Below, one piece after another: positions 42,201 to 64,000 of a DNA stretch of 64,000 bases. Source of the DNA: Phoronis australis (taxonomy: Eukaryota; Animalia; Phoronida); contig NMRA01000492.1 of assembly GCA_002633005.1 (NCBI GenBank), forward strand, positions 124,001 through 188,000. Reading direction: 5' to 3'. Position 1 is the stretch's first letter, and each line of letters starts with the position of its first letter. Position numbers and translations under genes: made by a program. The notes under the pieces were generated by a model. That model saw nothing but the letters and a program-made list of their open reading frames with translations. It made no database searches and was not told the origin of the DNA.

Positions 42201-45200
42201 TGCAATGCCATACACTAATACCCTAATAACTGGAAATTGCCTGTGCCACAGAGTACTTGAAATCTGATGGTTTTTGTGTGTGAGACTCTGGATAGCCATT
42301 GTCCATTAAGCAGTTAACTGGCATACTCATTCTTTTCTTGCTCATAGACAAGACTGTTAATGTATGAAGGTTTTATTACACAGCCAAAGAGTCCATCTAA
42401 TTACTATGCAGAGGACATGCCGAGTTGCTGGGTAGTTAGGTCACTAACAGCTATTCTCTGTTTGATATTCTCTGCAGAGCAAAGTGTATTGATTTTTGAC
42501 ATGGATGGCCATGTCTGGCTTTTTGTGTCATCGAAGTTCTATGGGAATAAGTCTGCTGTCCTTGGGCTCATTTATCTCCATCAGTTGCATGTCTGCCTTG
42601 ACAAATTCTATGACTGACTACTGTTAGTAACGATTCTTGGCTGTTTTATACTATATTTTCATTATTTCATGGATTCAACTGTTTAACGTAATGCTACAAA
42701 ATGTTGTTAAGTTTTCATAAGCTCAGATTTCATGAATTTCACTCGGGGAAAACAGTCAGTTTTTTCTTTCTGCTCTTGTCGACGTGTTTGAGGACAAGGT
42801 TGAAAGTTGGTCGCCTTGTCTGATGATTTGATTTACTTATCAGTATCTCAAATTCTCCTCAGAATAAACATTGTATAATATAACAGATAATAGTCAGGGT
42901 TTTTCCTAAGTCAAAATCTGAACGGCGGTGCGAGTTTGTGCAACGAGTTGCCGCATTATAACCTACCTTTGTGCTAATTCACTGAAACGACTAGAGGTGC
43001 ACGATACTTTACTTGATGAGCATAATTAATGCATTTTTGCTGCAAAAGAATAAAAATAAGCACCACTATGCGACACAACTTCAATCATTTGTCTTGGAAA
43101 GTAGACAAAACTCATGGCTCATACCTTTTCAAATTAGCTGAACATTTCCAAACATGGGAACAGAAGTTTCCAAACTTGGGGCAGCATTATGCTTGAATAC
43201 ACGTAGGGAGAACTCTTATTTTAAACCGCATGTTATTATTTTGACTTTTGATATTTAATTTTGCACGTACGTCATTCATAGATTGCTATAAGCTGTATTA
43301 TTTCTTTACCATTGACTGTCTTCCTTTAAGTGACTTGTAATTTTGTCATGTAACATCCCATTCTAAGTTTTTAGTTGAATGCTTCTTCTAGGTAATAATC
43401 TGAAAGTGTTTATGTAATATGTTACTGTCGATATCTTGTTGGTAAATGTGTCGCTAATTAGTGTTTTGAATGATTCATGTGGTTGGCTCGTGTTTACAAA
43501 TTGACTAAAACTTGGTGCAAATTACAATAAAAAAGCAATTTTATTTTGCTAAGTGTGGCTTCGACACGTGAACAAAAACTGTCACATAGCCTTACGCATG
43601 GTGAAGTGAGAGGTCTCAGGGATGGCTGCATCACTAGATTACTGCTAGCCTATGTGTGTGCTGTATTCATCTTTTTGTCCTGACACCATGTTCCTCTTAA
43701 CCAGCACATCATGTGACTCGTAACTAGTTGTTAAGTAAAGTTGCAAGCAATGACTGGATGCGTTTCTCCATTGTAGCCTACTCTCGCAGGGCTGCTCCAG
43801 AAGACTCCATCGAGCCTTCCACAATGCCACGCACGGACCGCGCACGCGCCAGCCAGGCGGAACCAGAAGAGGTTAGTAGTGCCGCACTATGCGGTGGTCT
43901 GTTGGCCGCCTGGGGTGGTCTGGGTTGCGACAGTTGTTTGGGGGCGGTCTATTGGTTGGAATTGAAAAATAGAGTTGCAATATGAAAGATGTGTGTATTG
44001 GGTTTTGTTGTTGTAGATCTTGTACGATGTCGTCTTGTGGAGGCATAGATAAGGCTGAAAATTGTGAGAAGATGCTCACAAGAAAATAAGATGTCAACAG
44101 ACTTGAAGCAGGGGTTAATCTGGCTTCCGTCATGAAACTAACATTTGATCTTGGTCACGAATGGTTATAACTTTTACCTGATTCAGATCAGGGGTGATTC
44201 CTGTGCTTTAGGAAGAACTGGGAATTCGTTATTGCTCAAGATGAGGCTCTGCCATTTGGCTCGTCTCGGTGGGTCATTTCATGCGCAGTCTTGAGTATTG
44301 CCCAACTGCCAGTTTTTTCACATTACAAGAATCACTCCCTATGTAAGTGAGGAACGATTTGGTAACAATTTTTGGCAGTAAGTAGTTTAAATCAAAAGTT
44401 AGTTTCTGCGACAGCCGGCGACAAGTTATGATTGCTTTAAACTACTGATTGAAACATAAGTTATTGTTCCTGTAATTTGTTTCTTGATGTGACAGGTGTC
44501 CCCTGTGGTCCCTTTCGTAGGTCATCGCTCTTTACCACCTTTCCTTGTCTCCCTTTCTCATTTAAGTTAAACCTGGCATGTATGGCAGCCTAGCCCACAT
44601 TGGTTAGTCAAAGCAGAGTACGCGTAAAAATCGAGGCTTAAACCTCACTGGTATCGCAAAACTCCTGGTGTACATTGCTGTGTGTTCACTGAGGTTACTG
44701 CGTTACATAAGTTGGGTGGACACCACTAGTCCAAGTTGGTCTTGACGACCCTAAGCGAAGAAAATGGCCACAGGTGCATGAGATTGGACAGCTACCTACC
44801 TGGAGTGATGAATTCTGGGGATGAATGCTGCATAACCCCACTGTGCTTGTAAATTCTCTTGCTAGGCCACGTCTCTTTTAGAAAAACTCTTAAATGATGA
44901 GACTCGTGCTTGGCGAATGCGTCTTTAGTCTTACTTTGTTTCTCTAGTCACTCGTTTTCTTCAGTACATGTATGGGCTATAATCTTTATGTTTCTGCACC
45001 GGTAATGAATCGTAGTAAAGCACGTTCTATTCTGAACTTGTATCCATTGTCTGTCAAAATTTCCATTTTTAAACGAAACTTTCTTCTCCTCATAGACATT
45101 TACCTGTGCATCCTTTGTGTATGGTAATCCTGTATCGATGTAGGGTTTTGGGAGGCTTTGCAGTTGGCTAGTTGGGGACATGCTGTTGGAGTGAGGTGTT

Positions 45201-48200
45201 TGCAGCAGTTTAGTTTTGATCCGTTATTAACCCTGCACTCTGCAAATACCATTTATGGGAGATCTACAGTAGCCTAGACAATATATGCCTTGTGACAGTA
45301 TATACAGGGTAAATTTTTCCTGGTAGATAAATGTTCCCAGGATGCAAATATATGAAAAGTGCACATGATTGAACTATAGCACTTTCCCCTGGTTCAGAGG
45401 AAATGGACACAATACATATTGCCCCGATGCATGGTAAATGGAAATAGTAGTGTGATGTTATAGTAAAACTGCACTTGTCGGTCAAGTGAACATGACTGCT
45501 ACTTTGTTGGAAAAAGACTTTGAACCTAAAATCATGACACCAGATCACTCAATTTGAGGTTGCTCATCTGATCACATGTAGTATAGCTGTTGTGTTGGGA
45601 CACGTATTTATTTCAATGGCGCATTGTGTTTCTCGATTTTTGGTTAGTTTGAAAAAATAATTCCAAGTTCTGATATTAGGTGGGTTAGCACTTCTACTTT
45701 TGTCACCATTGTACTTTGTTTGACGTGGCATATTTGGCTCTCATTTTCGTATTATCCGTCTTTGAAATTTCAGATTTCTGGACCTTACTTTCATTTTTTC
45801 GTAAAACTCTGTAAACCAGATCATCTAAGCTTTCGCCTTAATTAGTAATGTCACACTGTGTACAGTTAGTAGCCATATCTCTGTTGTCTGTAGCATAGTG
45901 CTATCACTCTTGACATGCTGCTAACACACTCAGGTCATAGAGGACATTGATGCTGGTGAACAGGTTGAGGGGCCACTTGTCACCCGAAAAGAGCGTTACT
46001 CGCCCTCGACCAGTCTGCCGCGCGACTCATCCCTGCCGCGGGCTGTCAAGAAGAAAGGATACAAACCAGAGCGCCCCGTGGTGGCCGAAGAGATTGTGCC
46101 CGTCGAGCACGAACGCAGCTACCAACAGCACCCGCTCCTATCTCCTTCCTCTCCGCTACAGGTTTCTCCGTCTTTCTAGTTTTTACGTTCATTTCTTCTG
46201 TTCTCTTGGTGCTCCATAATACTAACTTTTAACGTTTGGTTAGCTCTCATTCACCTGTCTTTGTTTTTTTTTTTTTGTTCTTTAAGCATTCATTTTCTTT
46301 AGATTTTTCTAATTTCGTTCTCGCTTCTGAATAGCTGTTTTCTTTGTTTTGTTTCTGAGTGGTAAATCTGATGTTAATGTTCACCGACTCACTCTGGGAG
46401 TGATTATTTCCTCAGCCCGGACAATATACTTTTGTGACCACTGATCAGGACGGTAACGTGACGCAGTGCGTGGCTGAGCCCGACGGCACCATTATTTCGC
46501 GCAAGACGCTGCCTCCTATCAAGAAGGACAGCACCCTGCCACGCCCGAATCTGGGCCCCAGGAGTGCAAACACGTACCCCCGGAAACAGGTGGATAGACC
46601 CTAACGGCATGCTAACAACAGCCTTGCGCTCGGAATGTTGATTGCTATGTTCCTAGGATTACTTTTCTGTTCAATCTAATGGCCCGCTTTTTAAAAATCT
46701 CGTCTTTGTCTCTTGTCTTAGACCTTGAGTGGTGTCTTCTCCTCTAGTGACCCGTGGATGTTCACAATGTGCCTCTGCTGTGAAACTGTTTCAAGACTTG
46801 CATGATACTATATTGCGCTCAAAGAGTCCGCGTCATCGTCTACAGACGGGAGTCTGTATTGTGTTGGTGTTAAAGGCGTACATCGACGTGGCAGTGTTTC
46901 ACTTTTGCTATTTGTGAATGACATACCTGTCCATTGTTTATATTAACGATACAGTTTGTAGGTGGTTCAGCCTTATTCATTTACAGCATGAAATTGACTG
47001 CTGAGTGTGATGCGTACTGTGTTCTTCCAGTTACAGACTATAGTGACTGGATGTCTTGAGTCTTAAAATTTGGTTTGAAAACACTGTCTCTCTTTCACGT
47101 CCATCTCTTCTTGTCGCATCATTTCTCTCCACCGTAAAAGCCTGCAGCTGTTACAAGGTGAAACGGCAACTTTTGTGGGTGATGTAGTACAAGCTGAGGA
47201 TTGTTTATTCTTCTAGATCTACTATATGCTAGGTGTTCTTCTGAACGTTCAGGAATGTATTGTGAAGTCTATGTTTTGCCGTCTGTTTTTCTCTGGGCCG
47301 TCCATCATTGGTAGGCTCTCAATGTGCTGTTTCATATAATGGCATGCTCTTGACTCTGCACCCCGTTGTTTATAGTATTTAGTTGTGTTTGTTTCATTTT
47401 GTTATGTTGTTTAATATGCCCTACTTCGCGCTCTAAATGATCACTGTTTGTCAGCGTTTTACGCTGGTATTTCACACTTTTATTTTCACGCACAAACTGA
47501 TAATCACTTTGTTTGACGTGTTCTCTTGTACTGAAAGCTTTTTTGTCTCGTCTCTTGTGTTCAGTTTCTTCTGCAGTGTCTTGTTCCATCACTATGTTTC
47601 TAATTCCTTTCTGTTGTTATTGTAGTACGACCAGGATGACCTTATCCGCGCCATGGGCAGTGCTAATTGGTGGAAGTATGCTCCGGAGGAGCGGTTCGCC
47701 ATGCTGGGGCCCCAGCGATGCTGTCCCACCCAGGAAGAACAGGAGAACCTGTTGCGTGACTGGCCGCTGTTGAAACCGCAGGAACGCGCCGATGTTCTGA
47801 AGCGGTGGCCGCGTCTGACACCAGGAGAACGAGAGAGACTGCTGGACGACTGGGCCAAGCTGAACCCCGAGGAGCGCAAGAAGACGCTGTCCCAGTGGTA
47901 CGACATGGCGCCAGTGGAACGCCAAGTACTATTATCCAACTGGGATAACCTGTCGCCGGAGGAGCGCAAGATTCTGATGAACAACTGGCCGCTGTTCACA
48001 CCGATGGAGCGCGCCATCCTGCTGAGCCAATGGCCTAAGCTGTCGCCAGAAGAGCAGGACCGCATACTAAGGGACTGGGACAAGCTGACGCCGGAGGAAC
48101 GAGACATGGTGCTGAGAAATTGGTACAAACTGTCGCCAGAAGAACAAGACAAGCTATTGGAGGCTGAGAAGGCACGACGACGGGCTGCCAACTTACCTGT

Positions 48201-51200
48201 GGACGTGAGTAGTGGGAGGCATACTGGTAAGGTTGGAGCTGTTGAGCTATGTGTAGATCTGAGCTCTTGGGAGAGAACATATTTGTGGGGTTGGTGTAGC
48301 TGATAAAAATGTCACTTGTTTATTAGACTTAGAGGTACACGCAGTTAGATGGATACTGTCCATTTTTCAAGCTTAAGGCAGTTGTTGTATTGCTATATTT
48401 CGAGGAGAATTTTTCGAACCATTTGTTGCTCATCGCACGGCACCAATGACTCACATTACTCACTTCCATAAGAGGGAGCTGGTGAGTGTCATGCAAGTGT
48501 GTTGCACGTGACACTTTGAAGTGGATTCCAATACGAACCATGACACTTTTGCACAATTAGTGATTATATCTTGACCCCCAAAAGTGTTTTTGTCTGTGTT
48601 TGGAAAAATACACGGGAAGTTCTAACGGTGTTGTCTGTGTTCACTTACAGGGTGTTCAAGATGAACTGATTCAGAGGTATGGCAAGGACACGAGTGCCAT
48701 TGACTATATCAAGACGGCGGCCGCGCTCACTCCGGAGGAAGAGGTGCGACTACGGCTCCAGGAGGATCTGAAGAGGCAAGAGGCTGCTGGGGAATCTGTC
48801 GACTCGGTGAGTGAGGATTGGCTAGGTCACATGACTCTTGGGCACCAGATTTTTGTCTCGGTGTCACGCACTTTGGTTGTAACAGGGTGGAGAGATGAGC
48901 CAGTATTGGGACTTGTTCATGCTCTGAGTAAGCAGTTGTCAGTTGCGTGGAAGGGCAGGACTCACTGCGTGACGTTGTTCCCTCTTTTCGTGCGAAATGT
49001 ACGCAAAATGTAAAACTTGGTAAGCTCGCGCACATTTTTCATAACATCAAAATGATTTCTGCCCAGTCAAATTGTGAGTTAATGCATTCCGTTATGCTTG
49101 GCAATGCAAACATTACTAGTGCATAAACTGCACGTTTTGGTCGAGAACGAAACTCGTGAAAGATAATAAGAGTATCCTGGAAGATGCACAGAAAATTTGC
49201 GGAACATGAAAACGAATTTGACAGCGGGAATCGGGATCTGAAACCTAGCCATGGTTTTGACAGAGTCCAGCCTTGAAGTTTAAAGGTCCGTCCAAGTGTC
49301 TTAGTCTTGCTTGACCGTGTACAGCTGCCATCGCATTTGGACATCATGCCCGCAGTTTTTGGGGCCAGCGGCAGGACTGCAGTGCTTTTCAGTTTTTGTT
49401 TCCGCATAGTGTAGCCACTGTTGTTACAAGTCCTAGCATCGAATTGTTTCTCCACCCTGTGTAAGGACTGTGCACTGTTTCAAGCACTGTGAGTGAAACC
49501 ATCTTTCATGTGGTTCAATTGAATATTGTTGTTGTGTACCATTCACCCACGTGTCTGTTCTGGAACAGAGTATGCCGTGACCATGCAAAAAGTTCCTAAG
49601 TTTTTGCGTGCTGGCTGAAACACTTGGCAAATCTCGGAACTGTTTTTTTTTTTTTTTTTTTGAACTTACGAAGCACATCCTGAGCAGTTTGTGGGCTCGT
49701 ATTTTTGTGTACTCTTTGGTTTTAGCTAAACAGTCTATGGTGCTAATTTTTGTCTTGACTATTAAAACATGGGGGTTTGGTGGCAGCCAAGAGCTATGTT
49801 TCGCCATTTTGTAGCAGCTGTAAACTGTCACCGTTTTGAGCAACTTGAGACAGCGGTGAAATATTGCCGTCTTAGAAGTTGTCTAAATTTTTTGCCTTTT
49901 TTGTCATTTCATTGTGACACCACGGTAGCCAAATCTGCTTGGATTTGATTATAGTCTCCCAAAAGGGAGTTGCCAAGGCATTTTGTCATGAACACAAAGT
50001 TATTTAGACATAGTGTTGTTTCCTCGTCACGACGGTGCTGTCCCGTCATAACGATGAACTCCGTTCGCACTTAGCCATTGTAATGGGAAATTCCAGTTGC
50101 ATTGCAGTCAACATGACGTCGAATTTCTAGTCATTCTGCACGTTTCTTGGTAGACCAGCTATGCCTGGCCGTTTTTGTTGCAGTTTAGGTGGCAACTTGT
50201 TCCAGCTGAAATTTTAGCCGTAGCTGTTTGGGCATTTTGTACTCAAGTTCTGCCTGTGTTTAGACTCTAGTTTGACCGTTACTGTAGACAGTAGTTTGTT
50301 TTAGACTAGGTCTCAGGGCCGCATGAGTCTCAGTGGTTGACATGCATTGGTTGCATGCTAGCACAATAGACTCCACTGACTGACACATTCTGAGATATCA
50401 AATTCCGTTGACATTTAATTTTTTAATGCCAAAGATTTACAAAACTTTCGGATAGTTTTTTTCGTGTATTTCAGGCACTCTGTGAATTAGGACCCTCTGT
50501 TTTCCATGCTATTTTTAACACTTTATTCTCTGTTACAAAAGTCTTGGCAACTATCACCAACCACGTTTTAAAGGGACATTGTCGGTTTTACGGTTCAAAA
50601 ACGCATTTTGGGTATTCTTGTATGGGATAGGCTTCTTGAAGGTATTATCTTTGACCAAAGCTATAAAACAAGATCCATTGTCGTCTTGGGATTTTGCAAA
50701 TTGCTGCTTCTCACTATTGTCCTCCAGACTTTCACTGAAATCAAAGCTGGTGTATTCACCACATACTCGGCAGTGCTGCATGTGTGATGCGACTCAGTGA
50801 CAGAGCCGTTCGCCTGCTACTGCCGAGCTTGTGAGTTCGATTCCTTTCTGCTAATTTCTGGTAAATTTATTTTCTTGCCGAGAATGTCCCTTTAGATATT
50901 ACGCTGTTCAAAATTCGAACTACAAAAATACTAATACTTAACAATTTTAGGAACCTTAGTAGATAGTTTCATAGTTTTATTTGAGCTCTTCAGCCCTGGG
51001 TTACCGTTATCGACAGTTGCGAGTGTTCCATCGCCAGCCGCCATGTAGTCGGTAGACCATGTGGTGCGCGTCAACATAGACTCTTAATTCTAGTTCACCG
51101 CCGTCCTGTGTGTGTTTCAGCTGAACATCAATGGTACTAAGGGCAACTGGGAGTCTGGCGACGAGTCCAACCCAGCCTCACCAACCTCCGATGCAGCCTC

Positions 51201-54200
51201 TTATGATCTTGAAGTATTCAATCCTTTAAATATGTCGCACTCCTGTCCTCTTCTGTTCATATCAATGCCTTTTACTTTGTTTACCGAGTAATCATTAGCA
51301 TTTTCAGTAGCGTTGCCGCAATCTACTTATAAGTGGAGCTTGGATAAGAATGATAACGATTTAGTCAGAATTTTGGCCATGTGAAACTGCTATACAAATT
51401 TGCAAAGCAAGCAGATTATGTAATCGAATGGTGTCTTGCTGTAAATTTGATATTAGCTTTGCATAGTCTGCTTTCTGGCCATATCTGTGTTTGTTTCTTC
51501 TTATTCACGCTTGTCGTTGTTGCGACGCGACACTTCTAGCAACTGCCTGATACTTTCAAGTGCATTATGCCCTGAGCTGGGTCCACTAATTGTAATGTCG
51601 CCAGGCTTTACTATCTTAGTTTGTTGTCTGTCACTCTTTAACACAACCAAAATTTGTCCTCGTGTACAATTCGTCAGTAGTATTCGTGTATTGTGTTTTG
51701 AACTTCCAAGGAAAATGATGTTGTGAAGTAGCATGCTTTGATTTCGTGTTGTTCCATACACTTTTATGCGCATGGCATTTTTCCTTCGTTCAACAGTCAT
51801 GGTTAACGGTGTACTTGCAAATTCATCTGTAGTGAAGACTACCGGACGTCGGACTAGTGAAGATTTCCACTAAATATTATCCTTATTGCATTTGATCTGA
51901 TTTTGGGAATTTTCTGCTTTATGGGGTTGATCAGGAGATATCAGTTTCCTGGCCAAATACATTTTGCTTTCCGCTGCCTTTTTATGAATCAAGAGTCAAG
52001 TGGAAGTACTCCAGGCTCTAGGCCATTATCACGTTTCATTCAAATTGGCAGGGAATTCTCGGGGGAGGGTTTTGCTTGCCTTTTGCCTGATTGTGAACAC
52101 CGTATGACACAAGCTCTTGCTCTTTTACAAGAATTGTTCTTTCTGAGAGAAGTGTAGCTTGGTTACTAACTTTCGTCAACAGATGGTGCTTTCGCTTGGA
52201 CAGAAATTAGGAATACTTGTTTATAGGGTATTAATGTGCGTTACACAGCATTTCCAGATGTTTTTGCATGGTAGAAAATATTCTGGCTATGTACATGATT
52301 GTTTAATAATTGTCTCGTTATATCCTTGCACTGTCAGCGAGCCATGATTTCTAACAATCTGTAGTCTTTGTTCCAGCATGCTTTTTAACATCTTTGTGTC
52401 TTGTTTTGTATTGTTCTCAACCCGAGTTACTTGTAGTTACTACTACAAATGTTTGATATTACTGTGATTTATGCTATCAGTTATGCGTTCAAGATAATTA
52501 AGATTCTTGTTTCTCTTGTGTTACTTAGCTTAGCAGCTTTTTTGTTTAAAGCATCACAGTATATGCTGTAAATGTGGTTCTGTATGCTACATTTAAGGGT
52601 CAGTGTACTAATGCATTTGACATTGAAATTTTAAAAATGCTTCTTTTTGCAATTTTGGTATCTATACACACTCTTCAGGTAGCCTCTTCATGTACGGTTG
52701 GTCTTATTTAAGCCCGTGCATACAATGTGTGTTACATTTCCTGTCCGGATCATCCACGTTATTAATGGCGCTGTTTCCCTTGCAGCATGGTATGGCTTTC
52801 TTCACTCCGGCTGGCTACGATACTCTCACCAAGAAGATGGAGACGGCGGATAGAGGCGAGAAAATCATTGTTGCCACTCAGGTGAGTACCAGCGTAGCTG
52901 TAGATATGAGAAGCAAACTCTGAACAGGTGTGTGTATCTTCCAGATGGCTTTGTTTGGATCTCTTGTGGAATATTGGGTGTGTTTGGTTGAGAAATGTTC
53001 AGAGCCTTTTTAATCGTCACTCGGCTAGCGGAGGCTGTGAACTCTTGCAGCAGTTCATTCACTCTCTGTCTTGAGTTTGCTTCTGTTTATCTGGTGTTCT
53101 TGTGTTACCAATGCTCTACAGGCTCGTCTGTCTTTGGTTTATTAACAACTTTCCAAGTTTTCATTTAGCTCGACTATTCTCAAAAACGTATACACTAGCC
53201 AGGTTGATGATGACTTTGATCTACTGGATCAGTTCATTAGTGTCACTGTAGGATGTCATCTGCGGTGCATTACAACAGAATCAAATAAGTAGTTCATTCG
53301 GTAGTTTGAAATTGCTAAAAAGTAGCGTAAAACCCCTGATCAGTTTAATGCATCAAGTATAAAAATTGGGTCTCTTCCTTTGGAACCCAATCACACCAAG
53401 CTTGTTCTCAGTGCCATACAAAAACGGGGGGAAAGAAAAAGGCGGAAACCAATTCAATTTCATCCAGTCTGAGTAAGAACTCAGTTGTCTGTCCCCTGTT
53501 TACGCCTTTCCCTTCCCGTTTAATTAACGTGTTGAGAAGGGTTCCAACGATCTGAGAACGAGTTTGTTGCTAGAGGGTCTTTATAAGTAACATATTAACT
53601 CACACATGAGAAATCTTTTAAGAACTTGGTCTCATCTGTCAGCTCACTCACCTTTAGTTCCAGTAGATTTTTAACATCATCACGTTTCCACATCACTATA
53701 GCAACTGCCGTCATCCACTCCTGATTTCCATATGCACTTTTTAGTCTCTTAGTGTGTTGTGGCTGTTGTGGAAGAATATCGAAGGAGCCATTCTTCAGCA
53801 AGTTTGTCGTAGATTTGATTTAGAATTTCTTGGTGTTGTACCGTTGTTGTACCAATTATGCCTTGTAACATAGAGACAAAGTACCTGAGTCGAAGACTAC
53901 ATGGGTTTTGTCTCAACGAGGCACCAATAGGTGTGCAGGATGAGGTTTTTCACACCTCTTGGAAGTCTCACCGTGCACATCGTGGAGTTGACGTTTCAAA
54001 TTGGCGTCTGATAAGCCTTGTGCAAGCATTTCGCTGCAGGAGAGTATTACCAGCTAAGATGCTAACTGAAAGTTGAATGGTTATGTTCGCTAGCTTGCTA
54101 CATGCCCATCTGAACTCAGCTGGCAAGAAACTGAGGAATTCAACAGCGCGGAGGTGTAGAAATCAGTTGAAAGCATCATTGACATCACCAACACTGTTTA

Positions 54201-57200
54201 CATTGTATCATAATATTAAACTCCTCTTCGCGTATTTTTCCACAGTGATTATAAGAGGAGTTGTAGTATTGATTAGTTTATTTGCCTATATCTTCAAATG
54301 TACCGCCAGATCTCTAGCGGAATAAACTCATTATGGAAGAGTGGAAAACAAGTTGAAATGAACTTCTGGAAAACTTGTGTGATCAGTTGCAAGGCTTGGA
54401 ATTTTCCGCGGAAACGCGGATTTCCGCTTTTTTCAAATGTTCTGTCTGCGTATTTTATTATATTTCCGCGTTAAAAAAATCGGATTTGATATAAAATTTC
54501 CGCGGCAAATTCCTTTCTTGCCGCGGCGTTGCCGACGACTTTCACCTCGAAAAGCGGAAGTTGCTCTTTATGTTTCGGGGCATCTGGGATAGCGTGGTGG
54601 ATTTTTCAATGGCCTGGTGCGATTGTAAACCGCGGTGACAAATACTACGACTCTGCAGCCAAAAATGTGCGGAGGTGGGAGTGGACAAGCCAGCTAAAAA
54701 GAAGCAGACGCTCGCTTCCAGAGGTGGTACCGTTTTGTTTTTTTTTTCAGTCCTCGCGTTTTTTTTTTTTGTCGGCAAGGTGTCCACATGGGCCATATCG
54801 AGGCCGGGAAGCGTGCATGTTTTGGGCCGTAAAAGTTTCCACGTATTTCGTCATTGGTCATTCCAAGCCCTGCAGTTGTTAACTAAAAAACAGCACGTGC
54901 TGGAAGTGCATGCGGAAGAAACACAGTATTGGTAGCACTGTCCAGTTTGTGGTGCTGTTCATTTGGTAAGATAAATGTAGCCATTTGATTCACTGGTGTT
55001 CAGCGGATTTATTTGCTCATACAACATGCAGGTCAAACTTGAATATCCACAAATTTTGTTTTGGGACAGAAGACCCTTCTTAGAGACACAGATGGGTGCT
55101 TTATACATGCACACTTGCAATTGCTTGCTGCGTCATTCCTGAAGATATGGTGCCACTACTGCTATGAGACCTGTCGAAAGCTCCTTCCGTGAAGGGTGCT
55201 GGCATAGACGTGAGAAGTATGAGTACTTGTGCTTCCTAATGCTTTAGGTTGTCTGGTGCAAGTCTGGTCTTTCATTCAGTGGTGTCATCGAATGGAGATT
55301 TCCGTTGAAGGTCACAGCTGCGTCGGGAGGTCATGTCATATTCGGTGTAGATGTTGTTTCTTGAGCAGTGGGTGCTGAATGGGTCTTACATTTGCCTAGC
55401 ACCATGCCTAGTGTTGGCTCAACTGATCACAGACAGTCGGATTTTGAGGTTCTGGGTTTCTGACCCTCATTAGAATAGTAGTCTGTTCTCACTCGGGTCA
55501 TTCATCTCAAAGTATGCAACATGTAGGTGAGCATTCCCAAACATATTTGCACTCAAATGCACAGACATATTTCATCATTATTGACTGATACACAAGTCTT
55601 TTTGCATGCCCAAGTGCCACAAAGGTTTGGCAATGGTAAAGTCAGAATTAAGGTGCATGCCAAAACATGGAGTCGTCGGAGTGGGGGGGAAGGACTAGCG
55701 AATCTCAGGTGTGTTGTCTTTCAGCGGACTACTGTGCAATCGACTGCCACAGAAAAGTCCACCAAATACACCAGCGAAGTGCCATTGGTCAAAACCCAGA
55801 AGAGGGTTATAAATGTGGAGGTTGACCCTAACGGGACGACACGAGTTGAAAAGGAAATCACCATCACCGGCAATAGTCAAGACATTGACTATGATGAAGT
55901 GAGTATTTATCTGTTCAGTTTTCTGCTGTCCGCTTGTCCGTGTTGCATTCATATGAAGCCCAGATTCAGCTTCGGCTTAAAAAAGTCATAGAGCGGTTAT
56001 ATGTGGCAAATATTTTTTAATACATCAAGTTAGCCTTCCTACTTTCACCTGATAACACTGTGGACTTGTTGAAGTTCAGTGACAGCTGCAAGCTTGTTGT
56101 GGCTTTAAGAAAAATGCATAATACAAAGTATCGTCTGAAGAGGGATTGTTTGGTAAGAGTGTGATTGAGGTTTGTGAAGCGCGGCCTGTTTGCTCTAAGA
56201 GTTACTTGTCGGTCACTTTGAAGTATCACCTCTCTCACGTATAACGTTGACAGCACAATGCCTCCAGTAGCTATAAAGTTTTATGCAACCCAGCTATGGC
56301 CTATGCTTAAATGAGCTTGTGATCACAGTAATGTTAGTCATCAAATCTATCAATTTTAATTGTGACTTGCATCTCGTGGATTGTTGGGCATAAGCATCTG
56401 AGAAGAGGAAAGTTAAGCCTAAGTTGTTCTAATCCACTTGTCATTTCCTACCAGGCATTGGCAGCTGCCATTCGTGAGGTGACAGACATGGATCCAGATC
56501 TCTCTGTAGACAAAATAGAAATCAAGACAAGCTAATCAACTCAGGTGAGGGTGTGTTTAGATGCTTTGCTCGCTTGACCTACTGTTTGTTAATTGTGTGA
56601 GGTTTTATAACAGCCACGTATTGGTTGCAGATGCCCTGAAAAAGCATGTGCGATAAAGTTGGTGGTTAGCCCACTTCACTGTTCACTCCTAGATCAGTAT
56701 AGAGCTCTGTGCTTGCTGCGTAATGGAAGTGTTAGCAAATTACAATATTTCAGCATTTTTTACCCACACCTCTGCAGTACTATTCCGTAGTTAAAATCGT
56801 GCCTTTTTCATTTCAGTCACTCTCTCAACACCGCCTGCCTGAGTGTTACCGTGGTTGCACATTGCGGTGGAAAACTCGCTGTATATGTCTTTCTATTTGG
56901 TGTGGATTGCTGCTATCGTCGCCGCTTATCGTTGTCACCTGGATTGTAAAAAATGGTGCAACTATGTTGCCAGCATATGAAGGACTTTTATTGACGTATT
57001 TTAGCCAACATCTGACCTTCAGCTTCCATAGTCGTGTTATGTGATGAAAACTTGTCATGCTAGCCTGTGTCATTTTGATAATGTTTTAGTACTCATCAAT
57101 AAATATTTGTACGACATACTATTTTTATGTAGAAGCATTGAGCACCAGAGTATTGTGAGTATTGTATTTCGTAGATGCATTAAGTTGTAAACAAAAGAGT

Positions 57201-60200
57201 ATAGATGTTTGTTTCTCTCAATGGTTAAAAGCTTTTCCCTAGGTGCGTGTATGTGCGGCTGAAATCGTTGACGTTCAACTTGCACTTGTGCTCTGATAAG
57301 TAAACATTTTAAATACTGGGAAATTTTTTGTATATGAATCAAGACTGCTCTGTGTTGCCTTGACAATGTGGAAGTGTGTGAGGACTGCCCACTGTTTGTG
57401 TCATTTTAGCTGTATGATAGATAGATTGATAGATAGATAGAAAGATATGCTCATGTGCTGAATTTGTAAGTTTTAACATTTTGTCATGTGCTACTGTAAT
57501 TTTTAGTACATATGTTGTTTTGAAAATGGTGGTATGGCTTTTACTAATAATAGTAATAGTTTGTGATAAACATGTTCTGAAAAGATTTTATTTTTTCATT
57601 TTTGCCTCACACAATCACAGTTCTACCTTTCACATTTATTTCTTTGTGTCTTTAAACGTACTAAGGAAATTAAGTTGATTACAAGAGAGAAAAGGTAAAC
57701 AAAAGGGTGTTTTCTGTGCTAGTGTTATGATGTGCAAACTGTTAGGAAGTGTTTCTGTGCTGTTGTGCCTACCATGACTTAATGTTACTATGTGTATCTG
57801 CTTTATGGTGGAATGCTTAATAAACTACTTCATTTTAAAGTTACCTTGTTTTCGTGCACATTATTGCGAATAGTACAAACCCCTCTGGTGTTGCTCGTTT
57901 CACCTCTTCTATTTCTACATGTAGCAAATGTGTTGGTCTTGGAGTAGTCGGAACAGCATGATTAGAACGGCCTTGGATTGCTCCCGCTGTGCCTCCATCG
58001 GGTTTCTTTTCTGTCTGCCCGTCATTGTGTCCATCCTTCAGTTCATGTTATTGCGTAGACAGGTCTTGTGCAGGTAGTGTTCGACTTGCATCGTCCAATT
58101 TGCATGTTGTTGGATTGTTGAACAGCCACTTTTGTGGTGATTCCGCTTGTCTTTGTTGAGCTGTTTTCTGTCTTGTGTTTGCGAGTAGTCCTCGAGTTTT
58201 GGTAACATGTGCATGGTACACTCACAACAGCTGTTTTGTGTTTCTTATTTTCACTATCTATCCATTTCGTGTTTTGCTTTCTGGTGCATGTTTGATGCAT
58301 TTTGTGTGTTTTTGAGCCAATTATTTTTTGGCAAAAAGATCATTGCTACACACTCACAAGAATATCACTGCTACACACTCTGAACAAGAATATAAACACT
58401 CAACAAGAATATCACTGCTACACACACTGAACAAGAATATAAACACTCAACAAGAATATCACTGCTACACACACTGAACAAGAATATAAACACTCAACAA
58501 GAATATCACTGCTACACACACTGAACAAGAATATAAACACTCAACAAGAATATCACTGCTACACACACTGAACAGGAATATAAACACTCAACAAGAATAT
58601 CACTGCTACACACACTGAACAGGAATATAAACACTCAACAAGAATATCACTGCTACAAGCACTCAACAACAATATCCCTTTGACAGACGCTCGACTAGAA
58701 TATCCCTGCGACATACTCTACAAGAATTTCAATGCCAGGCGCTCAACAAGAATATCACTGTTGCAGACACTAGTCTACAATATCACTGTAGCAAACGCTC
58801 AACAAGAATGTCATTGCTAGAGATTGTCGACAAGAAAAACAGGACCACGGGCACTACATAAAAACGCCACAGACACTACAAGAATGTCAATGTTACAATG
58901 ATTCAACAAGAATATCCCTACATGACCATTTCAGCAATGTTGGTTGTGTGTGCATGGAGTTGGACGTATTAGCACTTGTATGTTTGCTCTGTTCTCTCAA
59001 ATGAGTGACTAAGACCCTCGCAATATTTTATGGAATGGGGCCTCTGCTTTGGAAACTAGCAACGTTTTGACCCATTTCTATCCATCTATTATTCTGTCAA
59101 TTTTGAGATGAGTTCATAATGTAGAGGTATGTTTCCTAAACTTTTCTGGGCTTTTGTGGACTGTTGCTTGAACAAAACTTGACGTCATTTTGATTTGAGT
59201 AAGTGAGCTTCCTTTTGGTGTGGGTTCTGTGCAAAAGGTCCACTTGAAGGTTGCTGTGTACAACTACAAAAAGAACCTGCGGACAAGTGTCGTCTGGAGG
59301 ATGTAAATTTGCTAGGGGCCCACAGGGGTGTGGTTGTCAGAAGTAGGTGACTTCTATCAATCATAGGCCTAAGCTTCTTATTTATCAAACGTTTCGCTTG
59401 TGAATGGAGTAAACAGACACTCTGATGCTAGTTTAGGTTTGTTTTTGTTGTTTGGGCTTGGGCTTGATCGTGGTGTTTGTCAAGATGCCTTCTATGTTTT
59501 TGTCAGCCAACACACCTAGTGCTGTTGTCAACAACTGACCACAAAATAATGCATGTCTGTGACCCATACTGATATCATCTTGTCACGTGTCGCCATATTT
59601 CTTAGCAAGTGCGATGGTGTGTTGTGTACCTTGTTCTGGATATGAAGCGTCATTAAAAAAGTGGAACAATATTCCACCGGTTTCCAAATGATGCAAGAGT
59701 GCTTAGGCAGTGGTTAGCATCCTAACTAAAAATAGCAATGATCAGGATATCTGGAGTGGGGTAACCAGTTGTGCACATAGTGTTGCCAGCAAGAATTCCG
59801 TCAATCAATTGAAAACAAATGCCGTTTTAGGTAGAGAATTCCTTGAAGCCTTGTGCTTTGCATGCAAAAGATTTGCGTGAACTGCAGTTATAGAAGTAAC
59901 AATTTTGATAATGTGCAGCCACTGCATTTCAAATATGCTGACTACGATAATGAAAAAACATTTAGATCTAAGATACTTTGACAACCAAATTGGAGACTTG
60001 ATGTTCACTAGGTGGTGCTAATGAAGATACGGACCTCTTTTTTATCGTCTGAATTGAGCGAGGACAGAGACCTATGGAATCCACCATGAGACATGATTAT
60101 GCACCTATAGCTACCGTGCATGCTTTTCAGCTAAGACCGCTGTTCTATTATCACCACTTATAAATTCCGAGCTCGTGAAAAAGTTGTTTTGCTAATTATT

Positions 60201-63092
60201 TTAGACTTTATTGTTAGTGCACTCCATCTTTTTAACAAAAGTATGACAGGAACATTATGTGCACTTTGATGGCAAATGTCTGCACATGCTTGGCAAGACT
60301 GTTGATGCATGACATAGCGTTAATTGCATAGCAGTTCACTCTTTGGTATGCAGGTTCCTTTTCCTATTGAGCCATTTCATAGGAAAAAACGCTATCAGCG
60401 TTTATCAGATGGCCGAGGCTGACCTGTAGTTTAGATGTGTATGTAATTGAAAAAGCGATAAGTAATTGATTATGTTTGTCAATATTTTGTGTTTGCCTGT
60501 TCTATAATATGGAGATAGCTAAATAATGTGATTTGCTGCGGAAATCCGCTTCGACGTGATGTAATATATCATGTGAAAAGAATCCTACTTTGATACCCCA
60601 ACCAGTCGAGATTGGGCGAGTCGACGGGTTTGCGCACCTCAGAATCTGCCAATTTAGATCAAAGACATCATGCTGTTGTAGTTAATTAAATCGCCTCTCT
60701 AGATAATGATGCCCATCATAAAAACATTGGGGGTAACAATAGTGTTTTTAAATTTTCATTTTGAAAGTTTGTAAATAGCATATTTGAATAGTTCATGAAA
60801 AGCACTCGCAATAAGGTTTTTGAAGTTGTGTCACGGTACAATTATTGGCATGAGTTCCGCGGTCAAGACCCTGCTGAGACATAGACCTTCTCAAACTTGC
60901 AATTTCAGTTAACAGCGTACGGCCAACAAACGATGTGTCAAAGATAATGGTTGCTTTTTGCTGCTCCAAGTTTGAGATGTTTTTCAAACGCACCGTGTCT
61001 CACGATTTTTTGCTCATTCTAGCCCCCAACTGTGCAGACAACTCCTGTAACCTATGACCCGGACTCAGAGAACTCCTCCAAGTACACTCGTGATGTGCCG
61101 CTAGTGAAGACCAAGAAACACACTGTCAGTTACGAAGCAGAGGGCGCTGAAGAGCCACAAGATGGGGACCTGGTGACGTCACAGTCGCATTCTAGTCGGT
61201 CACAGACTATAGAAACAACCACAGTGTGTGAAGCTTCAACTGAACTTCTCCTAGACACGTTTGCATATTAGTTATACGCTGTATAGCAACGTTGATTTCT
61301 CACTTTCTGCTACTGTTGACCATTGCACTTGGCATTATATAGCAACTGAACTTGTGAAACTTTGGTTAAACTCATTTGGGAAATTGTAATGCCCTCTGGT
61401 GGCTTTTTAAAGCTTCAGTACCTAATTGCGTTACAGGAAGCTGGATACAAGCTGTTACATCTCACTATTGCGTGTCGTATTCACATTGAAATGGTCTGTC
61501 AACGATCAGATTGATTTGTAACTGTAAATTGTATGCAAACCAGCTTAGACGGACAGTTGCGGTTTTGGTAGTGTAATTCACCTTGACGTAATGTGCTTTT
61601 GACTGTCTAATGAACATCGATTACGGTGAGGCATGAAAAAGTTTATTGTTGAATGCATTTTGCTGTCTCTCTGCATGCATCAACAGTAGTCTTCGTTGAG
61701 GTTTTGGCATGTGTTTGATGCCTGTTTGTTTCGTTTTCAGTATACTACAGAAAAAGATGGCATGATTGAAACTCGTGTGGAGAGGAAAATCACAATCACT
61801 GGTGATGGGGAGGACATAGACCACGATGCAGTAAGTTGGACTCATAATTGTTTGTTAACTTTTGATTCGGACCACACACCGCTATAAAATTGGTCTCAAC
61901 TGGTTCCTTGACAAGTGATTTCTGGTTTCTTACAGTTTGTTTGTTATTTCCTGAGATTATGTTTGTCGCAAAACATAATACGCCGTGTCAAGAGGACTTG
62001 CAGAGCCTGTTCTTGAGAAATAACGAATTGTCAGTTCCTTCAAATCCCTGATATCAACCTCGGTTAGACTAAGGATTAATTTGAAACTAATTTCAGGATA
62101 GGTGGCCAAATTCAAAACCTTTTTTTGTCGTGGAAAGCCAGTTTGTAGACAGTTTCAGTGTTTTTTTTGCATAAAAGTAACGCCCAAAAAGTTTTTCTAT
62201 TTTTCTAAAACCTTCTACCTTGATACAAGTATTTTGTAAAGTAATTTGACAGTGGTACAGTACAAGCCATGCTTGAAATAGTGTTTTCTTCATCTAATGC
62301 TGAGAAATTTAAACACAATTAAATTCTCCACCTGTTGGCCATGTGAGATTGTGCCTAATGGGTTTGTTCTAAAGCATACTGGATCGTAGAATCATAGCTA
62401 AAAAACAGTTGACTAGATTCTCCTTTTGGAAGAAAGCAAATACAGCATAGCTGCTGATCATGTTATTGAGCACCCATTCTTCCGCATTACACGGCTTTGT
62501 TTTACCACCTGGTGCGCCCTCTAGGGCCGGAAGGTGGAAACTAGGAGCCCACCCCTCATCTAATGGCATGAATGGCTGCAAGTTATTTAGTTTGTAACCA
62601 CTAAGTATAAAGAAGTCAGTGTTTGTCTGCCTTATTAGTAAGTAGGTTTAATTATAGTTCGCCAGAGACCATTTCTGGCGTCATTTGATGCAACAAAGCT
62701 AAAAAATTCATTTAGTACTGACTTAGTGCTTCAACTTGAACACAGTTTTGAAAAGTCGTAAGAAATGAAATTAAACAAATGAAAATTGTCCATTTTGTTG
62801 CTTGGTTATATAAAGGTATTTTTGTAATGATGTCTGGACTTTTCTTGTACCCCAAGGATTTTGGAGGCTGGGTCCAGAGCAGCTCACTGTTTGGAAGTGG
62901 GGGCAAAACACTGGTTTGTATTTCCGAAAGGAAACTGCGGTCGCCTATTTCCATTTTGCACAAATGTATTGGTATCGTGTTTTCTCGTTTCACCAGGCCT
63001 TGGCTGAAGCCATACGACAGGTGACAGATATGAATCCTAACCTGGCCGTCGAAAAAATAGAAATCAAGACTGAGACGGAGGAAGTTAATTAA
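9179..63092 (+). CDS. EPB41: Multi-exon protein 4.1 / coracle family gene (FERM + FA + variable middle + 4.1 CTD), with two alternative terminal modules
   Basis: Exons joined at GT-AG sites keep one frame throughout. Family-typical sequences include [116 protein letters not shown] and the [23 protein letters not shown]. The symbol denotes the family (EPB41/EPB41L1-3/cora), not a specific paralog. Confidence 0.96.
12749..12820. repeat. Compound CT/CCCT/CTGTCC microsatellite
   Basis: Directly visible simple repeats. Confidence 0.9.
12934..12999. repeat. 33-bp direct duplication
   Basis: GTTTCT(G/T)TGTAGATTGCATGTTCCCATTGTTCT occurs twice in tandem. Confidence 0.85.
15095..15278 (+). promoter_or_regulatory. 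Candidate alternative promoter / first exon inside intron 2
   Basis: Local CpG enrichment (15030-15180), no clear upstream acceptor, strong donor GAG|GTGAGC at 15279. Confidence 0.4.
20065..22642. mobile_element. Possible decayed hAT-like element (two matching ends)
   Basis: CAGGGATATAC at 20065 and GTATATCCCTG ending at 22642, each with clustered subterminal GGCGAG/CTCGCC motifs. No clean TSD and no transposase ORF. Confidence 0.4.
26872..27180. repeat. Degenerate tandem array (GAGCCATGTTTGTAAACTAAGCAAGCT.../CCATGTTCAAAATCTT subunits)
   Basis: Repeated CCATGTTT/CCATGCTT cores at ~20-30 nt spacing. Related pieces at ~843-1015 (+) and ~43105-43160 (-). Confidence 0.75.
29217..29414 (+). CDS. 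EPB41: 4.1 exon: N-terminal headpiece and start of FERM (DNHAAQ...[20 protein letters not shown])
   Basis: ttccag|GAC ... GAT|gtgagt, 198 nt, phase 0-0. Confidence 0.93.
30997..31098 (+). CDS. EPB41: 4.1 exon FERM F1 ([34 protein letters not shown])
   Basis: ttgcag|AAA ... ACA|gtgagt, 102 nt. Confidence 0.96.
33336..33581. mobile_element. Non-autonomous DNA transposon with 6-bp TSD
   Basis: Ends CAAGGCTTGGAAT / ATTCCAAACCCTG, with ACCAAC duplicated on both flanks. Same ends as 54390-54872. Confidence 0.8.
34866..35055. repeat. 21-bp minisatellite, ~9 copies
   Basis: Unit CAGTTAGCTAC(A/G)GTGACTTGT. Confidence 0.95.
35351..35393 (+). CDS. EPB41: 4.1 exon FERM F1 ([14 protein letters not shown])
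   Basis: tttcag|TAC ... AGA T|gtgagt, 43 nt. Absent from the ORF track but required for the FERM domain and the frame. Confidence 0.95.
35486..35741. repeat. 42-bp minisatellite, ~6 copies
   Basis: Unit TAGATAATGGAGCTGTACAGTGTGACAGTGTGCCATGCTCCC. Confidence 0.95.
36744..36864 (+). CDS. EPB41: 4.1 exon FERM F1/F2 ([39 protein letters not shown])
   Basis: ttgcag|CG ... AA|gtaagt, 121 nt, phase 1-2. Confidence 0.97.
37413..37592 (+). CDS. EPB41: 4.1 exon FERM F2 ([14 protein letters not shown]...LHRTH)
   Basis: cctag|A ... AA|gtacgt, 180 nt. Confidence 0.97.
37971..38058 (+). CDS. EPB41: 4.1 exon FERM F2/F3 ([29 protein letters not shown])
   Basis: ttgcag|G ... AAG|gtgagg, 88 nt. Confidence 0.97.
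39224..39376 (+). CDS. EPB41: 4.1 exon FERM F3 ([10 protein letters not shown]...KIRPGE)
   Basis: tttcag|GAC ... GAG|gtacga, 153 nt. Confidence 0.97.
40003..40100 (+). CDS. EPB41: 4.1 exon FERM F3 end ([32 protein letters not shown])
   Basis: tttcag|TTT ... AG|gtgggt, 98 nt. Confidence 0.97.
40734..40894 (+). CDS. EPB41: 4.1 exon FERM-adjacent (FA) region
   Basis: ttacag|A ATG AAA ... GAC G|gtacgt, 161 nt, [12 protein letters not shown] motif. Confidence 0.95.
41887..41955 (+). CDS. EPB41: 4.1 probable cassette exon ([22 protein letters not shown])
   Basis: ttacag|AA ... CCA G|gttgtt, 69 nt, symmetric phase 1-1, weak donor. Confidence 0.7.
43777..43871 (+). CDS. EPB41: 4.1 middle exon ([31 protein letters not shown])
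   Basis: ttgtag|CC ... GAG|gttagt, 95 nt. Supplies the required phase 1 to 0 transition. Confidence 0.85.
45934..46161 (+). CDS. EPB41: 4.1 middle exon ([10 protein letters not shown]...LLSPSSPLQ)
   Basis: Branch-like CTAAC, ctcag|GTC, 228-nt GC-rich open frame, weak donor CAG|gtttct. Confidence 0.8.
46416..46589 (+). CDS. EPB41: 4.1 middle exon ([15 protein letters not shown]...NTYPRKQ)
   Basis: ttcctcag|CCC ... CAG|gtggat, 174 nt, phase 0-0. An alternative in-frame AG lies at 46448. Confidence 0.78.
47626..48204 (+). CDS. EPB41: 4.1 large exon encoding a 15-aa tryptophan repeat array
   Basis: ttgtag|TAC ... GAC|gtgagt, 579 nt, phase 0-0. TGG codons recur every 45 nt from 47761 to 48121. 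Confidence 0.9.
48651..48806 (+). CDS. EPB41: 4.1 middle exon ([11 protein letters not shown]...GESVDS)
   Basis: ttacag|GGT ... TCG|gtgagt, 156 nt, phase 0-0. Confidence 0.88.
50572..50891. mobile_element. Non-autonomous TTAA-targeting DNA transposon (Kolobok-like AGGG ends)
   Basis: TTAA-AGGGACATTGTCGG ... CCGAGAATGTCCCT-TTAG: inverted ends with one mismatch. Confidence 0.6.
51121..51213 (+). CDS. EPB41: 4.1 middle exon ([31 protein letters not shown])
   Basis: gtttcag|CTG ... GAA|gtattc, 93 nt, phase 0-0, weak donor. Confidence 0.75.
52786..52881 (+). CDS. EPB41: 4.1 last exon before the terminal modules ([32 protein letters not shown])
   Basis: ttgcag|CAT ... CAG|gtgagt, 96 nt, phase 0-0. 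Confidence 0.88.
54390..54872. mobile_element. Non-autonomous DNA transposon with 6-bp TSD
   Basis: Ends CAAGGCTTGGAAT / ATTCCAAGCCCTG, CAGTTG duplicated on both flanks, many internal TTCCGC/GCGGA motifs. Confidence 0.85.
55725..55898 (+). CDS. EPB41: Proximal CTD module exon 1 (RTTVQS...EVPLVKT...[20 protein letters not shown])
   Basis: tttcag|CGG ... GAA|gtgagt, 174 nt, 4.1 CTD motifs. Confidence 0.92.
56455..56535 (+). CDS. EPB41: Proximal CTD module stop exon ([26 protein letters not shown])
   Basis: ctaccag|GCA, TAA at 56533-56535, donor CAG|gtgagg 9 nt after the stop. Confidence 0.92.
   Translation, partial: ALAAAIREVTDMDPDLSVDKIEIKTS
56817..57845 (+). other. Proximal 3' UTR exon (3' end approximate)
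   Basis: Acceptor ctttttcatttcag| at 56816. First ~135 nt are homologous to 63828-63957. AATAAA at 57098 and 57819. Confidence 0.7.
57819..57824 (+). terminator. Candidate polyadenylation signal of the proximal module
   Basis: AATAAA followed ~20 nt later by the T/GT-rich CCTTGTTTTCGTG. A second AATAAA is at 57098-57103. Confidence 0.5.
58357..58670. repeat. 47-bp minisatellite, ~6.5 near-identical copies, decaying to ~58920
   Basis: Unit CAAGAATATCACTGCTACACACACTGAACAAGAATATAAACACTCAA, itself made of two CAAGAATAT-headed subunits. Confidence 0.95.
61023..61223 (+). CDS. EPB41: Distal CTD module exon 1 (PPTVQTT...[15 protein letters not shown]...IETTT)
   Basis: cattctag|CCC ... ACA|gtgtgt, 201 nt, VP.V.T...TVSYE motif of the 4.1 CTD. 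Confidence 0.92.
61741..61830 (+). CDS. EPB41: Distal CTD module exon 2 ([30 protein letters not shown])
   Basis: ttttcag|TAT ... GCA|gtaagt, 90 nt, canonical CTD core. Confidence 0.96.
62997..63092 (+). CDS. EPB41: Distal CTD module stop exon ([31 protein letters not shown])
   Basis: caccag|GCC, TAA at 63090-63092, donor AAG|gtaatt 12 nt after the stop. Confidence 0.94.
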   Translation, partial: ALAEAIRQVTDMNPNLAVEKIEIKTETEEVN

Positions 63093-63827
63093 ATTAACGA
63101 CAAGGTAATTAGCCTTTTTAGGTTGAGGTTAGACGCGGAACTGCTGGCAGTGTAGTACTGGTGTTTATTATACCCAGTGGCACTTGCTTCTGCTGAACAT
63201 CGAGAGGGGAAACCATCAGCTTTTGGTGTTAACTTCAGCAAAAGATTAAAAATCTGACTTGCAGTTCTTTTGACCATTAGCAATAACATAGGTGTGCAAA
63301 ATTTCATGCGAATTGACCCATTGATGTTTGGAACTGCTAAAAGCAATGTTGGTGAGAAGACTTCAAAATGACTGATAAAGATTTGCCACGAAATTGAAAT
63401 CTATTGACCTTGTCCCAATCAATGTTTGGCACACAAATATGTTATGAGTAGCAATAAACATGAAGATAGATTTTCAGGATTTGTGAATATTGCATTTTGG
63501 GGGAAAATTCCACGAAGGTTGACAATTACCTGAAATCAATTTCAACTTCTTAGTTGGCCAGTTTCAGGCCTTTTGATTTTTGAAGCTTTGCCATTTTAGA
63601 TGGTGACTTGTCTGCTGAAGAGGATTTGGAAAATATGATTTGCACTTGAAGAGTAATTTGACAAGTACAATGTTTACTTGTTTTTAAAACAGTTGATGGG
63701 AAGCACTGAATACCAATGGTTTTAAATGTGAAATATACATTGAGTTTTTGCTAAGCCTTGGAACTGAGGCCACCGTGGCATGAAGACATGCCATCACGGT
63801 AATAATTTTTTTCTTTTAATCTTTCAG

Positions 63828-64000
63828 TCTGTCATCCTTGCTTGGTTGTCTGTTACCATGGTTACGCATCGCTGACCAGTCATTCGCTGTTTGTGTCCTT
63901 ATATTTTGGTGTGGATTGCAACTGCCGCTTAGCGAAATCTTGTCGACTGATTGTAAAGCAGATTGTATGAAATGTTACTAATATATAGTGGTTGTATCAA
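63828..64000 (+). other. Distal 3' UTR exon (runs off the window)
   Basis: Acceptor ttttaatctttcag| at 63827. Homologous to the start of the proximal UTR exon. Confidence 0.75.

Follow-up and report, generated by a model that had tools for sequence, protein, structure and literature searches.

The 64,000-nucleotide stretch of Phoronis australis DNA analysed here (contig NMRA01000492.1, positions 124,001 to 188,000; referred to below as the window) carries a protein 4.1/coracle gene whose 3' end is present twice, as two tandem modules that we call A and B. RNA reads show that the two modules are used in a mutually exclusive manner, both off the same upstream exon, and that A is the commoner isoform, with about 75–80% of the junction reads. 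An earlier note, made from the sequence alone, had proposed one gene with two mutually exclusive C-terminal domains (CTDs) chosen by splicing and polyadenylation, and the RNA reads bear this out. We consider it highly probable that this is a single 4.1 gene in which the last common exon is spliced to either tandem module, giving a protein with a short derived CTD (A) or a canonical CTD (B), whose partner binding is likely to differ.

Two tandem 3' modules joined to one exon

The RNA evidence comes from four runs bearing the same species label. One (X1) consists of contigs, which we take by guess to be RNA, and the other three (X2 to X4) are stranded raw RNA-seq reads from one study, of which about 18–19% of each run's reads were taken; counts given as triples refer to these three runs. 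The tables of junctions and of loose read ends had a floor of three reads, and statements about them hold for the rows listed. The exons of the two modules and the features of their untranslated regions (UTRs) are as follows.

52786..52881, + strand: last common exon, donor joined to 55725 or 61023 (junction reads, loose ends)
55725..55898, + strand: A1, 58 aa, a B1-like first half joined to a B2-like second half
56455..56544, + strand: A2, stop exon of module A, 26 aa, TAA and 9 nt; CTD core helix and last strand, without the acidic tail
56817..57839, + strand: non-coding last exon of module A (RNA depth; X1 contig 56813-57839)
57098..57103, + strand: proximal AATAAA (sequence; no read-end pile-up among those listed)
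57819..57824, + strand: AATAAA before the observed poly(A) tail (X1 contig tail at about 57839)
61023..61223, + strand: B1, 67 aa, first part of the canonical CTD (50–56% identity to Lingula, Capitella and Haliotis)
61741..61830, + strand: B2, 30 aa (Pfam 4_1_CTD, 25.1 bits with a cut-off of 25)
62997..63104, + strand: B3, stop exon of module B, 31 aa, TAA and 12 nt; acidic tail
63828..64000, + strand: non-coding last exon of module B, continuing beyond the window end (RNA depth; homology to that of A)

The junction 52881->55725, which leads into A, was found in 114/118/211 reads, that is, in 3/3 runs. The junction 52881->61023 into B is seen from both of its sides: loose ends behind 52881 continue into the exon at 61023 (43/27/64 reads), and loose ends before 61023 match the common exon (42/30/52 reads, with agreement 1/0.97/1). 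Within module A the junctions 55898->56455 and 56544->56817 are covered by 106/131/197 and 87/84/156 reads, respectively (both directions summed), and within module B the junctions 61223->61741, 61830->62997 and 63104->63828 by 19/59/54, 27/39/77 and 23/30/63 reads. At the branch, A accounts for 443 of 567 reads (78%), and the depth of the X1 contigs is 613 for A vs 205 for B. The earlier note had also allowed for hybrids joining 55898 to 61023 or to 62997; the rows listed contain neither, nor any other A-to-B hybrid at 61023, 61741, 62997 or 63828 (short reads, three-read floor), and every loose end listed at 61741, 62997 or 63828 derives from the B exon just before it. Likewise, a junction skipping B1, which would give a short CTD by exon skipping, is absent from those listed.

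All exons, splice sites, phases and stops named in the earlier note are present in the sequence. The common exon, A1, A2, B1, B2 and B3 have AG/GT flanks, lengths that are multiples of 3 and a frame 0 open to the stop, and the acceptor AG directly precedes both UTR exons (56817 and 63828). The introns leading from 52881 measure 2843 nt to A and 8141 nt to B, and a single open frame runs from the exons for the FERM and FERM-adjacent (FA) regions through the middle exons to either stop (962 aa with A, 1006 aa with B; the N-terminus was not located). Between TAA and the donor lie 9 nt (A) or 12 nt (B), as the note had it, and its count of 19 identical residues among the 26 aa of the stop exons A2 and B3 (73%) was reproduced on recounting; these exons align at z 14.7 vs shuffles.

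In a BLASTN comparison of the A and B regions the significant matches are the stop exons (77% over 91 nt), the starts of the UTR exons (68% over 157 nt) and the ends of A1 and B2 (71% over 66 nt), with a fourth match at E 0.68. The flanking introns, which the note had described as dissimilar, align no better than shuffles in three comparisons (z -0.15, -1.0 and +0.7). The note had spoken of two intact parallel series: both are indeed intact, but they are not fully parallel, as A1 corresponds to the first half of B1 and the second half of B2, and about 40 codons and the intron between B1 and B2 are missing in A. Homology of the UTR exons themselves is a point added to that description. When single exons are scanned with PF05902, B2 lies at the cut-off, A2 and B3 match below it and A1 and B1 have no match; as whole modules, A and B both align with homolog CTDs.

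Age of the copies and the common 3' UTR block

Over 62 confidently aligned codons of A and B, the proportion of differing silent sites (pS) is 0.77, i.e., saturated, and that of replacement sites (pN) is 0.13, giving a pN/pS of 0.17 (bootstrap 0.10–0.27). Since pS is saturated and pN low, both modules appear to be under purifying selection; the pair is far below the ratio near 1 that the earlier note had named as speaking against its proposal of an old internal duplication kept under selection, and that proposal is upheld. With a total dN (replacement substitutions per site) of about 0.14 and a saturated dS (its silent counterpart), the dN/dS of A itself should be low too, if silent change is split between the copies. 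All five read-vs-window coding differences listed in module B are synonymous (5/5).

Module A is identical to B in 49 of 84 columns and to 13 homolog rows of other species in 30–42, and A and B are sisters in both CTD trees (support 90/83 and 88/69). These comparisons suggest an old duplication that probably took place within this lineage, with B as the conservative and A as the remodelled copy. None of the 81 CTD-bearing proteins among 123 fetched, many of them isoforms of one gene, has an A-like layout: in 32 the core is preceded by the VP motif at a distance of 52–76 residues (vs about 19 in A), and in 49 it is absent from the last 140 residues. A phmmer search with A1 against 1.84 billion representatives returned two weak unrelated matches, no A-type CTD was found in the Atlas, and a word search with B1 gave one match in 22 candidates; all three are weak negatives, the query being short and isoforms being hidden in clusters.

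Module A has its own AATAAA signals, as the earlier note stated, at 57098 and 57819. The X1 contig 56813-57839 bears 21 non-genomic A after 57839, 20 nt past the AATAAA at 57819 (one contig). Homology between the modules continues into the non-coding exons, where the first ~165 nt are identical at 118 of 164 aligned nucleotides (72%), with an alignment score of 147 vs 60 +/- 7 (maximum 81) for 300 random pairs of intron windows; the adjoining intron ends score only 18–33 over 60 nt. A coding origin of this homology was considered and ruled out, as the alignment gaps break the frame and the frame of the B exon stays open for 15 codons before it meets a stop. No further copy of the block was found in the window, an Rfam scan of 52700-64000 gave two matches at chance level and none in the block, and neither copy folds better than shuffles (z +0.36 and +1.65), the two-sequence consensus fold being weak. 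Identity of 72% next to saturated silent sites suggests constraint, and the block is likely a common cis-element retained in both mRNAs, for which a sequence-specific binding element is our best guess; an old gene conversion is an alternative source of the likeness.

Choice between the modules and the two CTDs

The most likely mechanism of choice is competition between the near acceptor together with the poly(A) site of A, on the one hand, and read-through to the far acceptor, on the other. An ancient duplication in this lineage would have taken in the gene from its CTD exons through its last exon, after which copy A would have dropped about 40 codons and one intron. When the near acceptor 55725 is chosen, the last exon of A would be defined and cleavage at 57839 would remove B; when it is skipped, the poly(A) signals of A would end up in the 8.1-kb intron and transcription would continue to B. 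Cleavage at 57839 would thus make the modules exclusive, likely without any special device. The best docking-selector duplexes have energies of -24.5 to -29.1 kcal/mol, within the range of 15 shuffles for 4/4 region pairs, and no arms stand out among 125 pairs (one genome; short conserved pairings could be missed). Under the 50-nt rule of nonsense-mediated decay, both mRNAs should escape decay, since both stops lie 9–12 nt before the last junction.

The CTD of B has 128 aa and is canonical, and that of A has 84 aa, being without the segment between the strand of the VP motif and the core. In PMC10523638, the binding core of human 4.1G is given as residues 953–996, a strand-helix-strand unit in which the partner strand slots between the two strands, antiparallel to the first core strand and with its C-end near the N-end of that strand; deleting the acidic last ten residues weakened NuMA binding, and electrostatics are called secondary. 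Mapping via PDB 8I8Y, with inferred numbering, indicates that the strand-helix-strand core is kept in A and B, that the equivalents of A975 and V988 are identical in both modules and that those of A979, V991 and V993 are still hydrophobic. Outside these positions the modules differ: A terminates 3 residues past the last strand, the net charge of the last ten residues is 0 (A) vs -3 (B) and that of the core -7 vs -4, A has Glu in the first core strand where 26/26 homolog rows have Lys or Arg, and DHD has become DYD in A at a nearly invariant position. Because the acidic tail is absent and Glu replaces Lys/Arg, the prediction is that A and B differ in how they bind basic partner peptides.

An AlphaFold2 (AF2) model of A1 has a hairpin at 22-33/39-50, the block having a predicted local distance difference test (pLDDT) score of 83–90. 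The model of Capitella P0008, which has a canonical CTD, contains a long hairpin (E617-630/E633-646) that involves the same core strand and is built from the segment deleted in A, with an extra low-confidence strand upstream. On the simplest reading of the models, A put the next upstream strand in place of the lost one, and such a replacement would explain how the deletion in A was tolerated. A two-chain complex prediction of the separate A1 and A2 exon products scored 0.01. Among annelid and bivalve 4.1 proteins, some contain the B1-equivalent segment and others do not (P0005 vs P0008; P0106/P0107 vs P0112; the set P0106–P0119), which suggests that a long/short CTD switch through skipping of the B1-equivalent exon is widespread in spiralians.

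The modules might instead be retained chiefly because of what their 3' UTRs do for stability, localisation or translation, with interchangeable CTDs. We regard this as unlikely, yet deserving of serious weight: both CTDs keep the entire binding core, the UTR starts are 72% identical despite saturated silent sites, which points to selection at the RNA level, and PMC10523638 treats the electrostatics of 4.1G outside the core as secondary. However, interchangeable CTDs fit poorly with the change of Lys/Arg to Glu and of DHD to DYD at near-invariant positions, the 40-codon deletion and the missing acidic tail of A, and the UTR block, being common to both modules, does not by itself tell them apart. 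A different account of the short CTD takes A to be self-occupied, the deletion bringing a hydrophobic strand and turn before the first core strand so that they would fill the partner slot, and splicing would then switch the protein between B, able to take a ligand, and A, with its ligand site blocked. The AF2 hairpin in A1 (pLDDT 83–90) agrees with this and could supply the partner-strand geometry described for 4.1G in PMC10523638, but the canonical CTD of Capitella P0008 is likewise predicted with a hairpin on that strand, A may merely have substituted strands, and neither model identifies the edge at which the core strand is covered; we find this account quite improbable. The wider picture of a canonical B and an A whose hairpin fills its own partner slot, with both mRNAs carrying the ~165-nt UTR block as a control element, we find improbable; were A self-occupied, the dominant isoform would act as a membrane adaptor in which the C-terminal hub is inactive or directed at other targets.

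Neutral decay of A, transcribed merely because it is nearest, would accord with its faster evolution, internal deletion and truncated tail. This is very unlikely, as silent sites are saturated and just 13% of replacement sites differ, the in-frame deletion spares the core, the start of the A UTR is conserved and A is the major isoform; the earlier note had mentioned a lack of module A transcripts as an objection, and A is transcribed. The note had also raised an assembly artefact and a separate transcript for B. Trans-splicing is formally compatible with short reads, but haplotypes assembled in tandem do not fit copies with 77% of their silent sites different and no sequence in common between their introns; moreover, reads of other samples map to each copy at at least 95%, and both modules are joined to the same upstream exon. 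We consider an artefact or a separate gene B scarcely credible.

Several points weigh against our preferred reading of one gene with two selected and functionally distinct CTDs. The A:B ratios at the branch (2.7, 3.9 and 4.1) do not differ among runs (chi-square p 0.20), no regulation is seen, and all three ratios come from one study. The poly(A) site of module B lies outside the window. Selection on A is deduced from the pairwise comparison of A with B, the support for A and B as sisters is under the tool's starred threshold in both trees, and the branch of A, about five times longer than that of B (1.05 vs 0.19), may partly reflect relaxation. Finally, the charge argument for altered binding is borrowed from work on a human paralog and on NuMA, which is a vertebrate partner.

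The rest of the gene and known systems

The coding exons upstream of the last common exon fall into two groups.

29217..40894, + strand: nine upstream coding exons, for the end of the N-terminal unique region, FERM and FERM-adjacent regions (tblastn with Lingula, Capitella and Haliotis 4.1; further, GT/AG ends, a frame open to both stops and a FERM_M Pfam match)
41887..51213, + strand: seven middle (U2/3) exons, several alternatively skipped (RNA junctions, frame check)

The FERM domain is of the 4.1 type, the top PDB matches of a FERM exon being 4.1R and 4.1B (E about 1e-18), and exon 40734-40894 is FERM-adjacent, aligning with the post-FERM region of PF08736 proteins of Lingula (E 6e-11) and Capitella (E 4e-12). 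In a tree of the FERM-FA region with 33 rows (the window gene and 32 of at least 120 homologous proteins), the gene groups with annelid, brachiopod, nemertean and mollusc 4.1 (97/91), with no closer placement; the top identity over FERM-FA to any relative in the set is 76%. Exon 47626-48204 of the U2/3 region, heavily included in RNA, is an unusual insert of 193 aa in frame with 9 Trp exactly 15 aa apart, in repeats that look helical (Pfam DUF3106, E 1.9e-11); it has 0 blastp matches among the 123 fetched proteins and no usable Atlas match. The cassette exon 41887-41955 is skipped in 36/30/74 reads and included in 40/37/43, and RNA junctions show that exons 45934-46161 and 46416-46589 are omitted jointly and that 51121-51213 is also a cassette.

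Three repeats lie near the modules. The intron before A1 contains an element resembling a miniature inverted-repeat transposable element at 54379-54883, with 24-nt terminal inverted arms, and we take it to be a dispersed repeat because the reads that stack up there have many different flanks. Between the poly(A) site of A and module B, 58350-58819 holds a 47-bp tandem repeat (7 copies, 97% matches) that decays into a 28-bp array. The segment 60745-60802, 220 nt before the B1 acceptor, also occurs, for the most part in opposite orientation, in transcripts that stem from elsewhere, and is probably a repeat fragment.

Tandemly duplicated C-termini with alternative poly(A) sites are known from human genes, where PMC8373072 and PMC9741552 give 77 of 236 events, including a two-exon swap in GNAO1. 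Unlike events of the GNAO1 type, the duplicate here takes in a separate non-coding last exon, and one copy appears remodelled by internal deletion and intron loss, the derived copy being the major isoform. EPB41 is absent from the main text of these two papers, and their supplementary human event lists could bear on the presence of such an event in EPB41 genes. In Drosophila PGRP-LC, CG42235 and Pip (PMC6191721), multi-exon tandem 3' cassettes are likewise joined to a common exon with the proximal one favoured, and exclusivity comes from splicing coupled to polyadenylation; their choice is steered by docking-selector RNA pairing, whereas none above shuffles was found here (one genome). Tandem 3' cassettes selected through splicing and polyadenylation thus form a known class, ordinary in animals, and the occurrence of one in protein 4.1 is apparently unreported: no duplicated CTD module in 4.1/coracle was found in the titles and abstract starts covered, most subscription papers falling outside that coverage.

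According to PMC3791450, invertebrates have a single 4.1 gene with the order U1-FERM-FA-U2/3-CTD and vertebrates have four genes. Compared with the 4.1 proteins of Lingula, Capitella, Ridgeia, Haliotis and Sinanodonta, the Phoronis gene has the same domain order, a FERM identity of 60–74% and a canonical CTD in B, but Lingula (17 rows, one C-terminus) and Sinanodonta (5 rows, one final core) carry one CTD end and Phoronis two. Some relatives apparently make a short CTD by skipping the B1-equivalent, to judge from their proteins, whereas here the duplicate supplies the short form. This lineage would then have gained two CTDs inside one gene and remodelled the one that became the main product, and the short conserved 3' UTR element marked out here is open to direct test. 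The core seen in the CTD–NuMA structure of human 4.1G (PMC10523638; PDB 8I8Y) is kept in both modules, and A is without the acidic end whose loss made NuMA binding weaker in that study. A and B offer a natural pair for testing the role of the upstream strand and the acidic tail, both outside the binding core, in the choice of partner.

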